Positions 17,439 to 21,298 of a stretch of DNA of 64,000 bases are shown piece after piece. The position numbers and the translations under genes are program-made. The stretch comes from Patescibacteria group bacterium (GTDB taxonomy: Bacteria > Patescibacteriota > Saccharimonadia > Saccharimonadales > JANWIN01). The notes beneath the pieces are model-generated. The model saw only the letters and a list, made by a program, of their open reading frames with translations. It was not told where the DNA came from and did not search any database. The stretch spans positions 80,096 to 144,095 of the forward strand of contig DATIHJ010000019.1 in assembly GCA_035480855.1 (NCBI GenBank), written 5' to 3'. Numbering within the stretch: position 1 is the stretch's first letter; every line of letters begins with the position of its first letter.

Positions 17439-17912
17439 ATGCATAGGCACGGATACCAAGGAAGAAAGTTTCACCGAGAGCAAGGTGAGAGGCTGGCGCT
17501 CATTAAGGGCCTAGCCGATTCTTTGGTTATCTATGAATCTATAGAGACTACTCTGCCTAAGGCCAAAGAACTCCGCCCATATATGGAGCGACTTATTAGT
17601 AAAGCTAAAAACGGAGACTTGCACAGTCGCCGGCTTATTATAGGCAGTCTTCAAACCAAAGCTGCAGCTCACAAGCTAGTAGACGAGATTGCACCAAAGC
17701 TTGGAGCACGAACCAGTGGTTATTTACGTATCGAGCGCACGGGTTTTCGCCGTGGTGACCACGCTGAAACAGCCAGAGTTAGCTTTGTCGATGATCTAAA
17801 GGCAAGCACCAGCAAGCCAATTACTAAGACTGCTGATGTGCCTGCTAAAACTAGCGCCAAACCCGCAACTAAGCGCCCAGCAGCAAAACCTAAGGCAAAG
17901 GCGGCAGCATGA
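17439..17912 (+). CDS. rplQ: 50S ribosomal protein L17 (K/A/P-rich C-terminal tail)
   Basis: MHRHGYQGRKFHRE... L17 N-terminus. Confidence 0.94.
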   Translation: MHRHGYQGRKFHREQGERLALIKGLADSLVIYESIETTLPKAKELRPYMERLISKAKNGDLHSRRLIIGSLQTKAAAHKLVDEIAPKLGARTSGYLRIERTGFRRGDHAETARVSFVDDLKASTSKPITKTADVPAKTSAKPATKRPAAKPKAKAAA

Positions 17913-18352
17913 TGAAGACTTTTAGCATGAAAGGCAGCGATGTCGAACGTGCATGGTACATTTTAGACGCCAGTGAGCTACCGCTTGGCCGACTTGCTAC
18001 AGAGATTGCGAGCCTTCTTATTGGTAAAAGAAAACCAACAGTTACAGCCCACGTAGATGGCGGGGATTATGTTATTGTCATAAATGCCCAAAACTTGGTA
18101 GTAACTGGCGACAAGATGCTTGATAAAAAATATTACAGCCACAGCAGCTATCCTGGTGGACTCAAAACAGCTAGCCTTAGTGAAAAGATTGCTAAAGATC
18201 CAACCCAAGTTATTGTAAAAGCCGTGCGTGGCATGCTACCTGTCAACAAACTTCGTGATGGTCGGTTACTACGACTCAAGGTCTACACAGGAGCAGAACA
18301 TCAGCATGAGGCACAAAAACCGCAATTAATTTCTTTGAAACGGGGCAAATAA
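17909..18352 (+). CDS. rplM: 50S ribosomal protein L13
   Basis: ERAWYILDASELPLGRLAT motif. Confidence 0.95.
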   Translation: MMKTFSMKGSDVERAWYILDASELPLGRLATEIASLLIGKRKPTVTAHVDGGDYVIVINAQNLVVTGDKMLDKKYYSHSSYPGGLKTASLSEKIAKDPTQVIVKAVRGMLPVNKLRDGRLLRLKVYTGAEHQHEAQKPQLISLKRGK

Positions 18353-18750
18353 TGGCAGAGAAGCACTATCATTACGGACTTGGTCGACGCAAAAGCGCAA
18401 CGGCTCGTGTACGTTTACAGAGTGGTAAGGGTGTTATAGTTATCAACGGTAAGCCAGCAGATGAGTATTGGGCCAGCAGTAAAAACCTACTAAACAAGCT
18501 AGAGCAACCTTTTACAGTACTAGAACAAAATAACAAATATGATGTTAGTGCAGTTGTTTCTGGTGGTGGTCCTAATGGCCAGGTAGAGGCTGTACAACTT
18601 GGAATTGCCAAGGCATTGGCTGTTATGAACGAAGACCTTCGTGCCACCCTAAAGCGGGCAGACTTGCTGGGACGTGACCCGCGCGAAAAAGAACGTAAGA
18701 AGTTTGGCCTCAAGGGCGCTCGCAAACAACGCCAGTTTACCAAGCGCTAA
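18352..18750 (+). CDS. rpsI: 30S ribosomal protein S9
   Basis: C-terminal GLKGARKQRQFTKR. Confidence 0.95.
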   Translation: MAEKHYHYGLGRRKSATARVRLQSGKGVIVINGKPADEYWASSKNLLNKLEQPFTVLEQNNKYDVSAVVSGGGPNGQVEAVQLGIAKALAVMNEDLRATLKRADLLGRDPREKERKKFGLKGARKQRQFTKR

Positions 18751-18754
18751 CCCC

Positions 18755-18782
18755 TTGACTTTTCAGCTCCTACTGATAACAT
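18755..18782 (+). promoter_or_regulatory. Promoter TTGACT-16 nt-TGaTAACAT, 6 nt upstream of mini-ORF ATG 18789
   Basis: -35 at 18755-60, TG at 18774-75, -10 at 18777-82. Confidence 0.4.
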
Positions 18783-18788
18783 TTTAGT

Positions 18789-18842
18789 ATGTCCTGTGAC
18801 AAACAAGTATACGCAAAGAACGCCTTTGCCATCCGCAACTAG
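18789..18842 (+). CDS. Candidate leaderless leader peptide, 17 aa (MSCDKQVYAKNAFAIRN)
   Basis: Hand translation. The ATG lies 6 nt after the -10. The stop TAG (18840-42) abuts the antiterminator strand GCGGTT (18842-47). Confidence 0.35.
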   Translation: MSCDKQVYAKNAFAIRN

Positions 18843-18890
18843 CGGTTGACTTACTTGTTACGCCCCACAAGACACCATAGCAAGAAAAGT

Positions 18891-18914
18891 AAACCGCCCG
18901 GAAGGCGGTTTTTT
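18891..18914 (+). terminator. Intrinsic terminator AAACCGCC-CGGAA-GGCGGTTTTTT (end of the ribosomal operon and/or attenuator of the pheA-like gene)
   Basis: 8-bp GC-rich stem (18891-98 / 18904-11) plus a T6 tract. SD GAGGAG and ATG 18932 follow. Confidence 0.75.
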
Positions 18915-18931
18915 AACCCCGAGGAGTATTA

Positions 18932-19852
18932 ATGGAACCAAAAAAAGTTGCGTTCCAGGGTGAAGTAGGTTCGCACCATGAGGGTGTTACCAAACAGAAG
19001 TTCGCAGATGAGGATATTGAGATGGTTTATATGGCGAGCTTTAGTGATGTATATACTGCTGTCGCAAACGGTACCGTCGATCAAGCTATTGTTGCCGTAG
19101 GCAATACTAACATCACGTCAATCAGCGATTCAACTGACGCACTATTGACTGGTAGATTTTACGTACGGGATGACATTTTTTATGAAGTAAAGCATAGTCT
19201 GGGCGGTGTAGAAGGCGCTACCATTGAAGGAGCACGCGAAATTCATTCCAATGTGCACGCCCTAAGACAATGTACGGCATTATTCAAAAGACTGCCGGGA
19301 GTTCTGGCTGTGCCGGAAACAGACACAGCCAAAAGTGCTCGCCAAGTAAAGGCAGCAGGAGATGTAGGCATATTAGCGATTGCCAGCGCCGAGGCCCTTG
19401 AAGTAAACGGGCTTGTCACGGTTGAAGCAGATGTGCAAGATCCGCATAACTATACTCGCTTTATGGTTGTAGAAAAACTAAATGGCCAGAGACCCAGAGT
19501 TGGCCATACCAGAACTACTATGCTAATCACAATTAATAACACTCCTAAATCATTAGCGGATGCGCTGGCTGTATTCGGCGAAGACAACATAGATCTTTCA
19601 TTGATAGAAACTCCAGGTGTTACGGCAGGACACCCAAGGACAAGAGTCTTAGTTGAAGTAAAGGCGGGTCTATATAATCGCGCTATGCAATCCGCCATGG
19701 GTCGTTTAGTCGCAGATGGAACTGTTAAAGTCAGGTTTATTGGTAGCTACAACGGAGATGAATTGCCAGCAGGCGAATATAGTAGCGAAGAATGGGAAGA
19801 GCCCGAAACAAATATTAATATCGAAGAATTTGTCGCTTCCCTCGAAATGTAG
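18932..19852 (+). CDS. pheA: Prephenate dehydratase-like protein (PDT domain plus a divergent ACT domain)
   Basis: N-terminal KVAFQGEVGSHHE, the PDT signature ...NYTRFMVV, and a C-terminal ACT-like region with IETPG in place of the usual IESRP. Confidence 0.6.
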   Translation: MEPKKVAFQGEVGSHHEGVTKQKFADEDIEMVYMASFSDVYTAVANGTVDQAIVAVGNTNITSISDSTDALLTGRFYVRDDIFYEVKHSLGGVEGATIEGAREIHSNVHALRQCTALFKRLPGVLAVPETDTAKSARQVKAAGDVGILAIASAEALEVNGLVTVEADVQDPHNYTRFMVVEKLNGQRPRVGHTRTTMLITINNTPKSLADALAVFGEDNIDLSLIETPGVTAGHPRTRVLVEVKAGLYNRAMQSAMGRLVADGTVKVRFIGSYNGDELPAGEYSSEEWEEPETNINIEEFVASLEM

Positions 19853-19857
19853 CAAAG

Positions 19858-19886
19858 TTGCTAGAGAGCAATATCCGTGATAAAGT
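19858..19886 (+). promoter_or_regulatory. Promoter TTGCTA-17 nt-TGaTAAAGT, 7 nt upstream of mini-ORF ATG 19894
   Basis: -35 at 19858-63, TG at 19878-79, -10 at 19881-86. Confidence 0.45.
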
Positions 19887-19893
19887 ATCCTTC

Positions 19894-19971
19894 ATGTCAA
19901 ATACGACAATCCAAAATTCAAACTATTGGTTTACAGACACTGCTCGTGGCGGTTTGCTCCATATGTTTTAA
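19894..19971 (+). CDS. Candidate leaderless leader peptide, 25 aa (MSNTTIQNSNYWFTDTARGGLLHMF) with consecutive Tyr-Trp-Phe codons
   Basis: Hand translation. TAT-TGG-TTT at 19924-32. Contains the antiterminator strand GGCGGTTT (19948-55). Confidence 0.45.
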   Translation: MSNTTIQNSNYWFTDTARGGLLHMF

Positions 19972-19992
19972 AAAATTTAGAACCTACCGAAT

Positions 19993-20016
19993 AAACCGCC
20001 ACTCAGGCGGTTTTTT
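19993..20016 (+). terminator. Intrinsic terminator AAACCGCC-ACTCA-GGCGGTTTTTT (stem identical to the one at 18891)
   Basis: 8-bp stem (19993-20000 / 20006-13) plus a T tract. SD AGGAGG and ATG 20038 follow. Confidence 0.75.
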
Positions 20017-20037
20017 AATACAATATAGGAGGAATTA

Positions 20038-20235
20038 ATGTCAGATAGAATAAAAACTGACGGACCTTCGGAGGAAGAGGCAGCTGCCTTTTTAAGGAAA
20101 AGTGGCGTAGAGAGAGGTCCAGACGAATTTCGTACTGCACTACATATCGCTAGTTTGTTAAGGAGTACAGGCAGTCCAGCAGAGCCGAGGACAGAGCAAA
20201 CTGATGTAGCTGAATCTATAGATGAACCTAGTTAA
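20038..20235 (+). CDS. Hypothetical acidic 65-aa protein
   Basis: Strong SD AGGAGG 7 nt upstream. No recognisable family. Confidence 0.45.
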   Translation: MSDRIKTDGPSEEEAAAFLRKSGVERGPDEFRTALHIASLLRSTGSPAEPRTEQTDVAESIDEPS

Positions 20236-20252
20236 CAACAGGGTTTATAGGA

Positions 20253-20258
20253 TATAAT
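20253..20258 (+). promoter_or_regulatory. -10 box TATAAT 8 nt upstream of the trpS ATG (leaderless geometry)
   Basis: No SD between the box and ATG 20267. Confidence 0.4.
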
Positions 20259-20266
20259 TACATTCA

Positions 20267-21298
20267 ATGAGTAAGCAGGTAATTTTGACAGGGCTTAGAG
20301 CCAATAGTGAGTTTCACTTAGGTAACTATCTTGGTGCCATTTTGCCTATGGTAGATGTGCAAAAGAAACATGCCGGGGATTACCAGCTGAATATGTTTGT
20401 CCCAGACCTTCACAGCTTCACTACACCAATCGACCATGGCAAGCTTTATCAGAACACTTTAGATAATTTAAAGGTTTTTGACGCAGCAGGCCTAGATATA
20501 GAAAATTCTGATACATTCATTTACAGGCAGAGTTACATACCAGCGCACAGTGAACTTGCATGGATACTTGACTGCTTTACTTATTTTGGTGAGGCAAGCA
20601 GAATGATTGAGTTTAAAGACAAGTCACAAAAGTTTGGTAATGATACCGTTAGTGTCGGCCAGTTCAACTATCCAGTACTAATGGCAGCAGACATTTTGTT
20701 ATATGGTGCGGAATGGGTTCCACTGGGTGACGATCAGCAACAGCATCTTGAGCTTGCCCGCGATCTGGGTATGCGTATGAACAATAAGTTTGGTGATTTG
20801 TTTGTTGTGCCGCGTGAATGGAAAAAGCAACTGGAGTTTACGGATAGGACTAGCGTACGCATCCGCTCGCTGCGAAACCCAGAAAAAAAGATGAGCAAAA
20901 GTGTGGAAGACCCCGCCGGCACAATTATGCTCAATGACAAACCAGACGAAGCCGTAAAGAAGATTATGAGTGCCACAACTGATTCTGTGGGATCAATTCA
21001 CCTGGACTGGGATAAACAACCCGGCATTAGCAATTTACTTCAAATAAGCGCTCTCTTACAAGGTCAAAACATGCAGGACACAGCTAAGGAGTGGGAAGGC
21101 AAGACAAGCTACGGAGAACTAAAGGAGCATACTGCTGAGCTTGTTAAAAAGTTTTTGTCGGAGCTGCAGCCAAAAGTAATGAGTATTAGCGAAGAAACTG
21201 TACTCAAAAAGCTGGAGCAAGACGAGGCAGCCATGACTAAAGTAGCCAATGCCACCTTACTAAAAGTTCAAAAGGCGGTGGGACTAAGGTCAGAGTGA
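20267..21298 (+). CDS. trpS: Tryptophanyl-tRNA synthetase
   Basis: Class I HIGH-type motif (FHLGNYLGA) and KMSKS. Confidence 0.93.
   Translation: MSKQVILTGLRANSEFHLGNYLGAILPMVDVQKKHAGDYQLNMFVPDLHSFTTPIDHGKLYQNTLDNLKVFDAAGLDIENSDTFIYRQSYIPAHSELAWILDCFTYFGEASRMIEFKDKSQKFGNDTVSVGQFNYPVLMAADILLYGAEWVPLGDDQQQHLELARDLGMRMNNKFGDLFVVPREWKKQLEFTDRTSVRIRSLRNPEKKMSKSVEDPAGTIMLNDKPDEAVKKIMSATTDSVGSIHLDWDKQPGISNLLQISALLQGQNMQDTAKEWEGKTSYGELKEHTAELVKKFLSELQPKVMSISEETVLKKLEQDEAAMTKVANATLLKVQKAVGLRSE

Follow-up and report, generated by a model that had tools for sequence, protein, structure and literature searches.

In the enterobacterial pheL-pheA and trpL systems (Rfam RF01859, Phe_leader, and RF00513, Trp_leader), a short leader open reading frame (ORF) with one or more control codons is followed by competing 1:2, 2:3 and 3:4 helices and by a terminator that precedes an aromatic-pathway gene; untranslated RNA terminates (super-attenuation), and strand 2 is blocked once a ribosome reaches the stop codon. 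A similar arrangement appears to be encoded in the 181-nt spacer between rpsI and a prephenate dehydratase-like (PDT) gene at positions 18751-18931 of the window, by which we mean the whole 64,000-nt (64-kb) stretch of the Saccharibacteria contig DATIHJ010000019.1 that was analysed. We interpret this spacer, here called the rpsI-PDT leader, as a ribosome-mediated leader-peptide transcription attenuator on a leaderless mRNA, and we put the probability of this interpretation, which draws on RNA folding models, at roughly 55%.

In contrast to pheL and trpL, the predicted leader ORF starts without a Shine-Dalgarno (SD) sequence and contains a single Phe codon instead of a run of about seven Phe codons or two Trp codons. 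Its 1:2 hairpin is nested in a three-way junction that pairs the start codon, and the whole element lies directly behind a ribosomal-protein operon. The leader has no sequence or covariance-model similarity to the enterobacterial ones at E <= 10: an Rfam cmscan of 18600-20400 at this cutoff returned nothing on 18751-18931 except a weak match of an unrelated small RNA (sRNA) model, P9, to the terminator. A sibling leader farther downstream, at 19873-20016, gave sub-threshold Phe_leader and Trp_leader hits in the same scan (25.5 bits against a threshold of 55, and 16.4 bits against a threshold of 41).

Leader peptides of Corynebacterium glutamicum, as excerpted from PMC4046766 (with Morbach et al. 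2000 as cited there), include Phe-Tyr-Phe for aroF, Trp-Trp-Trp for trp, and an ilvB leader without a ribosome-binding site. The likeness is that of attenuators translated without such a site, one of which has mixed aromatic codons and precedes a DAHP synthase gene; those leaders, however, belong to another phylum, have no sequence relationship to the rpsI-PDT leader and were studied experimentally, whereas the latter is known from sequence alone. The trpL leader of Sinorhizobium meliloti is leaderless, and its terminated form, rnTrpL, is a stable small RNA (PMC6614838); leaderless attenuators consisting of short Cys ORFs have been described in mycobacteria (bioRxiv 10.1101/834739). As proposed for the rpsI-PDT leader, in each of these systems a leaderless short ORF heads an operon and serves as an amino-acid-responsive attenuator, but with other amino acids and other structures. 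A trans-acting role for the rpsI-PDT leader RNA by analogy would be pure speculation.

T-box leaders are the usual means of control of trpS and aromatic genes in Firmicutes. They also regulate aminoacyl-tRNA synthetase and amino-acid genes by tRNA charging through a terminator and an antiterminator. Unlike a T-box of about 200-300 nt, the leader described here is about 126 nt long, has no specifier loop, T-box sequence or Rfam T-box match, and would sense charging via the ribosome and not by direct tRNA binding. Saccharibacteria, a lineage of the Candidate Phyla Radiation (CPR/Patescibacteria), are reduced episymbionts; the general view is that they lack amino-acid biosynthesis, and their gene regulation is poorly known. 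A full-text search of a library of papers found no description of attenuators in Saccharibacteria; leader-peptide attenuation had apparently gone undescribed in this group of tiny symbionts.

The features of the locus, as read from the sequence or predicted by folding, are as follows.

18748-18750, + strand: rpsI stop codon
18755-18760, + strand: -35 box TTGACT, 4 nt past the rpsI stop codon
18774-18782, + strand: extended -10 box TGaTAACAT, after a 16-nt spacer and 6 nt before the ATG
18789-18842, + strand: putative leaderless mini-ORF MSCDKQVYAKNAFAIRN, ATG at 18789, TAG at 18840-18842
18810-18812, + strand: Tyr8 codon
18825-18827, + strand: Phe13 codon UUU, the proposed control codon, invariant in five copies
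18790-18874, + strand: closed three-way-junction domain P1-P4, from single-sequence folds of five copies
18790-18798 with 18866-18874, + strand: helix P1, which includes the start codon and has its partner downstream of P2 (folding)
18802-18809 with 18852-18859, + strand: helix P2, AACAAGTA with TACTTGTT, enclosing two hairpins
18813-18818 with 18824-18829, + strand: helix P3, GCAAAG with CTTTGC, carrying codons 9-14
18830-18836 with 18842-18848, + strand: helix P4, core CCGC-aacua-GCGG at 18833-18845, the predicted anti-antiterminator (1:2) that sequesters GCGGUU
18842-18897, + strand: predicted antiterminator (2:3) of about 17 bp in three segments, found as the minimum free energy (MFE) fold with Phe13 in a masked A site: GCGGUU 18842-18847 with AACCGC 18892-18897, ACUU 18849-18852 with AAGU 18887-18890, CUUGUUA 18854-18860 with UAGCAAG 18878-18884
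18891-18914, + strand: intrinsic terminator AAACCGCC-CGGAA-GGCGGTTTTTT, -11.2 kcal/mol for the hairpin alone
18921-18926, + strand: SD sequence GAGGAG of the PDT gene
18932-18934, + strand: ATG of the PDT gene, which extends to 19852

The promoter boxes, ORF, codons, small helices, terminator and SD sequence listed by the initial annotation, which was made from the letters of the sequence, were all found again on re-reading; helix P1 was missing from that description. The 3' arm of the terminator, GGCGGUUU (also written GGCGGUUUUUU), is followed by UUU and ends 17 nt upstream of the PDT start codon. Because no further promoter-like site was listed in this 17-nt gap, PDT expression must come via read-through of the terminator.

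We identified counterparts of the leader directly after the rpsI stop codon at four other loci. The product of the PDT gene matches Pfam PDT with E = 9.4e-39 but could not be used as an anchor for orthologues, as the protein is an orphan: among 5.8 billion proteins there are only identical copies, and the next best relative, at 32% identity, belongs to an unrelated high-GC bacterium with its own classical Phe leader. In that bacterium (L005:1270-1400) the leader (..RFSFAFAFYFSP*) and a terminator lie upstream of a PDT-DAHP synthase operon. Contigs of strain variants (L001-L004) have spacers 100% identical to that of the window and are uninformative. TrpS was therefore chosen as the anchor in a collection of species-representative genomes. 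Nine additional RpsI-based look-ups yielded new copies only in L085 and L086, the others giving leaders of a different, Trp-containing type (Trp-type, see below) or no leader. A metagenome scan anchored on the rpsI 3' end plus TTGAC found 18 loci, mostly with Trp-type leaders and none with the three-way-junction form. The five copies, whose leader peptides align without gaps, are listed with the identity of the adjacent RpsI to that of the window.

Window: RpsI 100%; leader peptide MSCDKQVYAKNAFAIRN
L085: RpsI 96%; leader peptide MSYEKQAFAAIWFAVRD
L086: RpsI 95%; leader peptide MSFVQQVFANARFAIRY; contig ends before the terminator
L010: RpsI 81%; leader peptide MSIDTQVSAKYAFAIALKR
L012: RpsI 80%; leader peptide MFYKKQEFETYWFEIR

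Complete copies are thus available from the window, L085, L010 and L012 (n = 4). The leader and spacer are 65-69% identical to those of the window, while the 4-fold degenerate sites of rpsI are only 41% (L085) and 33% (L086) identical, so neutral sites are saturated at these distances. Promoter hexamers, the 6-nt gap to the ATG, the helices and the terminator are conserved, and the promoter spacer and loops are free to vary. Judged by this comparison, the element is under selection, with the conservation pattern expected of a functional element.

All five copies have TTGACT or TTGACA 0-4 nt after the rpsI stop codon, a promoter spacer of varying sequence, and a -10 box 6 nt before the start codon with no SD sequence; the TGn extension of the -10 box, followed by 6 nt and the ATG, is present in four of them (window, L085, L086 and L010). 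By itself, the promoter match is at chance level, with 9 of 12 positions matching and 13 such sites found against 14.7 expected, and it is credible because it is conserved in the orthologues. The mini-ORF has 16-19 codons in the five copies. Its openness did not serve to discriminate coding from non-coding sequence, as a neighbouring reading frame is open too. In the window the GCGGUU strand begins with the G of the TAG stop, and in every copy the stop overlaps or abuts the GCGG strand or lies at most 3 nt from it.

The five copies all have UUU at codon 13, although its partners in P3 vary or shift register, and the distance from this codon to the start of GCGG is always 17 nt. The fixation of UUU13 while its pairing partners change speaks for its constraint as a codon and not merely as a pairing strand. 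At codon 12, L085 and L012 have UGG, the window and L010 have GCC, and L086 has CGU; the residue at codon 8 is Y in the window, F in L085, L086 and L012, and S in L010. The initial annotation had proposed sensing of both Phe and Tyr. With one invariant codon, Phe remains a plausible signal, whereas Tyr is unlikely; Tyr8 was rejected as the sensor because codon 8 encodes Ser in L010 and because a stall at this codon leaves the P4 anti-antiterminator able to form.

RNA of 18789-18916 folds at -38.2 kcal/mol (z = -4.4), and 0 of 200 shuffled sequences were as stable. The P1-P4 junction was obtained by folding each of the five RNAs alone, and RNAalifold independently recovers P2-P4. Compensatory changes occur in P1 (position 8, G-C/A-U/U-A; position 9, U-A/C-G; position 6, C-G/U-A), in P2 (position 15, A-U/G-C; position 20, U-A/C-G) and in P4, where the CCGC/GCGG hairpin is kept in all five copies and the outer pairs at positions 42-43 change from C-G and A-U to U-A and G-C in L085. 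In an alignment made by sequence only, 82.9% of the cells are paired, as compared to 35-47% with slid partners, and four pairs change on both sides; the covariation score of 0.139 was reached by 4 of 500 shuffles, and a structure-fitted alignment gave much the same result. A covariance model of the 5' domain, R1, scores 65.9-86.5 bits with the five copies, on which it was itself trained, and matches nothing else in 736 kb of related loci, including no Trp-type leader. The loops vary among copies (AACGC, AUUU or GCCC in P3; AACUA, GAUUAA or UAAC in P4) and the junction nucleotides are not conserved, which led us to rule out a riboswitch-like ligand pocket.

The terminator is ACCGCC/GGCGGU in all four complete copies. 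The window has U-A as the sixth pair of the 2:3 helix where L085 and L012 have C-G, and the GCAAG motif upstream of ACCGCC is kept in these three copies. Together with the P4 compensation in L085, the U-A to C-G change supports both of the alternative helices. The initial annotation had counted an antiterminator of 6 bp, which is an underestimate, as folding yields the stronger three-segment helix of about 17 bp.

To model a ribosome, the nucleotides from A-site -18 to A-site +12 were made unpairable. Three states are predicted for the full-length window RNA: the closed junction with the terminator when there is no ribosome, the terminator again when a ribosome is at the stop codon, and a switch of the MFE fold to the 17-bp antiterminator when Phe13 is in the A site. 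Such full-length masked MFE folds at equilibrium were inconsistent across the orthologues (L012, for example, prefers the antiterminator by -4 kcal/mol, with its Trp codon in the A site). Because attenuation is kinetic, we relied on the folding of nascent transcripts that stopped just short of the terminator's 3' arm. In all four complete copies, a ribosome placed at the stop codon leaves the arm ACCGCC free, and one with Phe13 in its A site leads to pairing of the arm with GCGGU. Without a ribosome the arm is free in the window, L085 and L010. In nascent L012 RNA the antiterminator has already formed in this state, and the full-length L012 RNA folds closed with the terminator. The architecture of promoter, leaderless mini-ORF and alternative helices put forward by the initial annotation is thus borne out by four orthologous copies and by ribosome-mask folding that reproduces the switch; the alignment with orthologous rpsI spacers that it had suggested has the mini-ORF conserved in four relatives and shows compensatory changes.

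In the proposed mechanism, RNA polymerase would start at or next to the A of the ATG at 18789, and a ribosome would load directly on the 5' AUG. Unhindered translation to the stop codon would place the ribosome over GCGGUU. On its release the RNA would snap into the closed P1-P4 junction, leaving the arm AAACCGCC free, so that the terminator could form and transcription would end at about 18914. If charged tRNA-Phe were scarce, the ribosome would stall with the Phe13 codon in the A site, holding open P2, P3 and the 5' half of P4 and exposing GCGGUU. This strand and the freed 3' strand of P2 could then pair with 18878-18897, the 5' arm of the terminator would be trapped, and polymerase would enter the PDT gene. 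Both translation of the mini-ORF and a real change in read-through are what this scheme predicts. Untranslated RNA, including read-through from the ribosomal-protein operon, in which the mini-ORF would be internal and without an SD sequence, is expected to fold closed and terminate, and the same hairpin would therefore also end the rpsI operon. That the hairpin has this second role is probable, as the initial annotation had already considered: rpsI and the leader have no other terminator between them. All five copies of this default-off form lie directly behind rpsI with no other terminator, a position that fits a second function in terminating the ribosomal-protein operon, and many relatives without a leader there have a plain hairpin after rpsI.

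Several observations weigh against this interpretation. The window peptide contains two aromatic codons in 17 (Tyr8 and Phe13), where about one is expected from the local F/Y/W usage of about 6%, so there is no enrichment. The Trp codon kept at position 12 in L085 and L012 is replaced by GCC in the window. UUU is the common Phe codon of the genome (50 against 11 UUC), which leaves no room for a rare-codon effect, and since the F-A-I-R codons lie inside helices, constraint on the peptide is inseparable from constraint on the RNA. At equilibrium, the full-length window RNA prefers the antiterminator by just 2.2 kcal/mol and the L085 and L010 RNAs do not prefer it at all, and the 2:3 helix of L010 has only 5 bp. 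The covariation comes from five sequences only, and the shuffle controls are just modestly exceeded. Finally, the genes downstream of the five-copy group differ, being PDT in the window, a DAHP synthase gene in L012 and a gene for an unknown protein of 124-134 aa in L010 and L085.

Some of these points fit an alternative that is possible, if rather unlikely: the element would be a decayed attenuator, descended from a Trp/Phe-sensing leader but no longer sensing, and would now constitutively terminate and insulate the ribosomal-protein operon, with a fixed, leaky read-through that feeds the PDT gene. The codon 12 replacements (GCC in the window and L010, CGU in L086), the chance-level aromatic content of the window peptide and the marginal or absent equilibrium preference for the antiterminator are as expected of decay, and a related leader has clearly decayed in L088-L095, with a Trp to Ser change and a broken T-tract. 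Yet the promoter, start codon, Phe13, stop position and whole junction have been kept in spite of saturated neutral sites, all of which would be needless for a plain terminator such as the simple hairpin found after rpsI in relatives without a leader, and nascent, that is kinetic, folding still switches in every complete copy. After the loss of the Trp codon (UGG to GCC), which left Tyr8 and Phe13, the sensing strength of the window copy is uncertain, and this copy could be a weakened or non-sensing descendant. An attractive idea is that the Trp loss tunes the window copy to the Phe-specific PDT, the sibling having retained its Trp codon on behalf of trpS; this pairing is seen in one genome, and L010 and L086 have lost the Trp codon as well with no PDT gene visible downstream.

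It is improbable that the spacer is a structured RNA with some other role, either a ligand- or protein-binding leader or a terminated transcript of about 126 nt that acts in trans as a stable sRNA like rnTrpL, the mini-ORF being incidental or secondary. The strength and conservation of the fold (z = -4.4), the pairing of the start codon itself in P1, the open neighbouring frame and the precedent of attenuator-derived sRNAs (PMC6614838) would all suit such a role, but the unconserved P3 and P4 loops and junction are unlike a ligand pocket, the Rfam search at E <= 10 had no match other than the weak one on the terminator, and the invariant bases are those required for the 1:2/2:3/3:4 competition together with the Phe codon. 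A role in trans would in any case be compatible with attenuation. A reading that we regard as a long shot is that the conserved C-terminal peptide (W/A)-F-A-(I/V)-R-x-stop does not passively report tRNA charging but is a nascent, TnaC-like arrest peptide, which would stall the ribosome at or close to the stop codon when a free aromatic ligand is present and for which a single Phe codon would suffice, and/or that the abundant, very stable 126-nt leader acts in trans. A further account, a plain rpsI terminator with promoter-like hexamers, mini-ORF and extra helices as chance features of the spacer, is strongly disfavoured. It is true that the hairpin follows rpsI with no other terminator and that the promoter match alone is at chance level; nevertheless, the whole 160-nt arrangement has persisted in five lineages at 65-69% identity although synonymous sites are saturated, its fold is of unusual stability and shows compensatory changes, and the PDT gene has no other promoter.

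The ribosome-mediated attenuator that we favour for the rpsI-PDT spacer has many relatives. About 40 other Saccharibacteria loci encode the same kind of leader in the interval between rpsI and trpS. These leaders, mainly of the Trp type, have a TTGACA-like -35 box, a -10 box that is often TGn-extended, and mostly 6-9 nt later an ATG with no SD sequence, which opens an ORF of 14-26 codons with many aromatic ones, ..[FY]-W-F-T.. being the commonest arrangement. A GGCGGU strand begins 16-20 nt past the Trp codon in most of them (10-26 nt across the 27 tested), and the terminator, ACCGCC-loop-GGCGGUUUUUU, is about 120-130 nt from the ATG. When 27 Trp-type leaders were tested, every one showed pairing of the GGCGGU strand plus flanks with the terminator 5' arm and loop, with energies of -12 to -27 kcal/mol, and the flanks co-vary (for example GUG/CAC, GAG/CUC and CUGG/CCAG). 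Genes found after these leaders are PDT, DAHP synthases, a prephenate-dehydrogenase-like gene, racemase-like genes, small ORFs, or trpS itself.

The rpsI-PDT leader resembles the Trp-type leaders in promoter style, leaderless ATG, a length of about 120-130 nt, the GGCGGU/ACCGCC/GGCGGU core, the distance from aromatic codon to strand 2, and its place between rpsI and trpS. It is not one of them, however. An nhmmer profile built from the 27 Trp-type leaders with the window excluded matches it only at 18853-18914, the 3' terminator part, with 21.7 bits; the full-length match with [FY]-W-F-T codons and a GUGGCGGUUU strand in the ORF is missing, and so is UGG. Its ORF is shorter and ends at strand 2, whereas that of Trp-type leaders ends about 20 nt beyond it, and it has a 1:2 anti-antiterminator with enclosing helices P1 and P2. 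Two other copies of the five, L012 and L085, read Y/I-W-F at the aligned position, as in Trp-type leaders, and this W-F bridges the homology between the two groups. With its P1-P4 junction, an ORF ending at strand 2 and a location directly after rpsI, the rpsI-PDT leader belongs, on these sequence features, to a separate subtype within a family of leaderless aromatic leader peptides that extends across Saccharibacteria. The two designs are predicted to have opposite defaults. Owing to the 1:2 hairpin and the P1/P2 helices, the default of the subtype would be termination unless a ribosome stalls; in nascent folding of Trp-type leaders (the sibling, L022 and L017) the antiterminator forms with or without a ribosome, so that these would read through unless a ribosome runs over the strand.

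The sibling leader, MSNTTIQNSNYWFTDTARGGLLHMF, scores 78.5 bits over its full length with the Trp-type profile (E = 2e-23) and is therefore a solid member of the Trp-type family. The stem core AACCGCC...GGCGGTT occurs exactly twice in the 64-kb window (18892-18910 and 19994-20012) against 0 expected by chance, and the initial annotation had suggested that the two leaders are a duplicated regulatory cassette. Paralogy at the level of the family stands. A recent duplication within this genome does not, because the identical ACCGCC/GGCGGU stem is the core of about 40 leaders family-wide and because the subtypes differ (21.7 against 78.5 bits, with the R1 model missing the sibling); the two are old paralogues of different subtypes.

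The family has further subtypes. At L083:310-442 a leader, MSRHFYVYSQYFILPL.., with five F/Y codons and no W precedes a prephenate-dehydrogenase-like gene, L025:4923-5041 and L058:5007-5124 have YW.YT.TQSWRY leaders with two Trp codons, and L076:4161-4265 has the leader MNRQNIGSTWWYDS before a racemase-like gene. About 60-190 nt past rpsI, six loci (L088, L090-L092, L094 and L095) have a Trp-type leader in which Trp is replaced by Ser (..NFYSFNT..) and the T-tract is broken (GGCGGTTTAATTAAATTT), which looks like a decaying attenuator.

In the region 17800-20400 of the window the gene order is rplM, rpsI (18352-18750), the 181-nt spacer, the PDT gene, the second leader, a 65-aa ORF, trpS, rluD and holB. 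The order rplM-rpsI-[variable slot]-trpS-rluD-holB is kept across Saccharibacteria. In loci L010-L100 the rpsI-trpS interval is either empty or contains a small ORF with a Cys motif (GTQEIC.RC) or genes for PDT, DAHP synthase, prephenate-dehydrogenase-like or racemase-like proteins, and the inserted genes often have their own aromatic-codon leader upstream (confirmed for about 40 loci). The PDT genes that relatives have at this locus share only 28-32% identity with that of the window, as opposed to 68-75% for TrpS in those loci. The 65-aa ORF (20038-20235), located between the sibling leader and trpS, has no Pfam match, and relatives have unrelated-looking small ORFs in this place. The trpS gene has its own TATAAT box 8 nt before the ATG and no SD sequence (20253-20269), as is also seen in L011, L015 and L054; this suggests that the trpS mRNA is near-leaderless and independent of the upstream leaders.

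The mechanism proposed for the rpsI-PDT leader is a textbook one, and the advance is in phylogenetic reach and variant architecture, not in principle; an arrest peptide or a trans-acting leader, if true, would amount to a novel regulatory device in a symbiont of ultra-small size. The present data suggest that Saccharibacteria have kept parts of the aromatic pathway (PDT, DAHP synthase and a prephenate-dehydrogenase-like gene), which share with trpS a single variable slot behind rpsI, where the genes are apparently controlled by ribosome-coupled attenuation on leaderless mRNAs. They also suggest two leader designs with opposite defaults, the default-off one serving in addition to terminate the ribosomal-protein operon. 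For a group that is difficult to work with, these leaders offer concrete points at which transcription-translation coupling and nutrient sensing can be tested.

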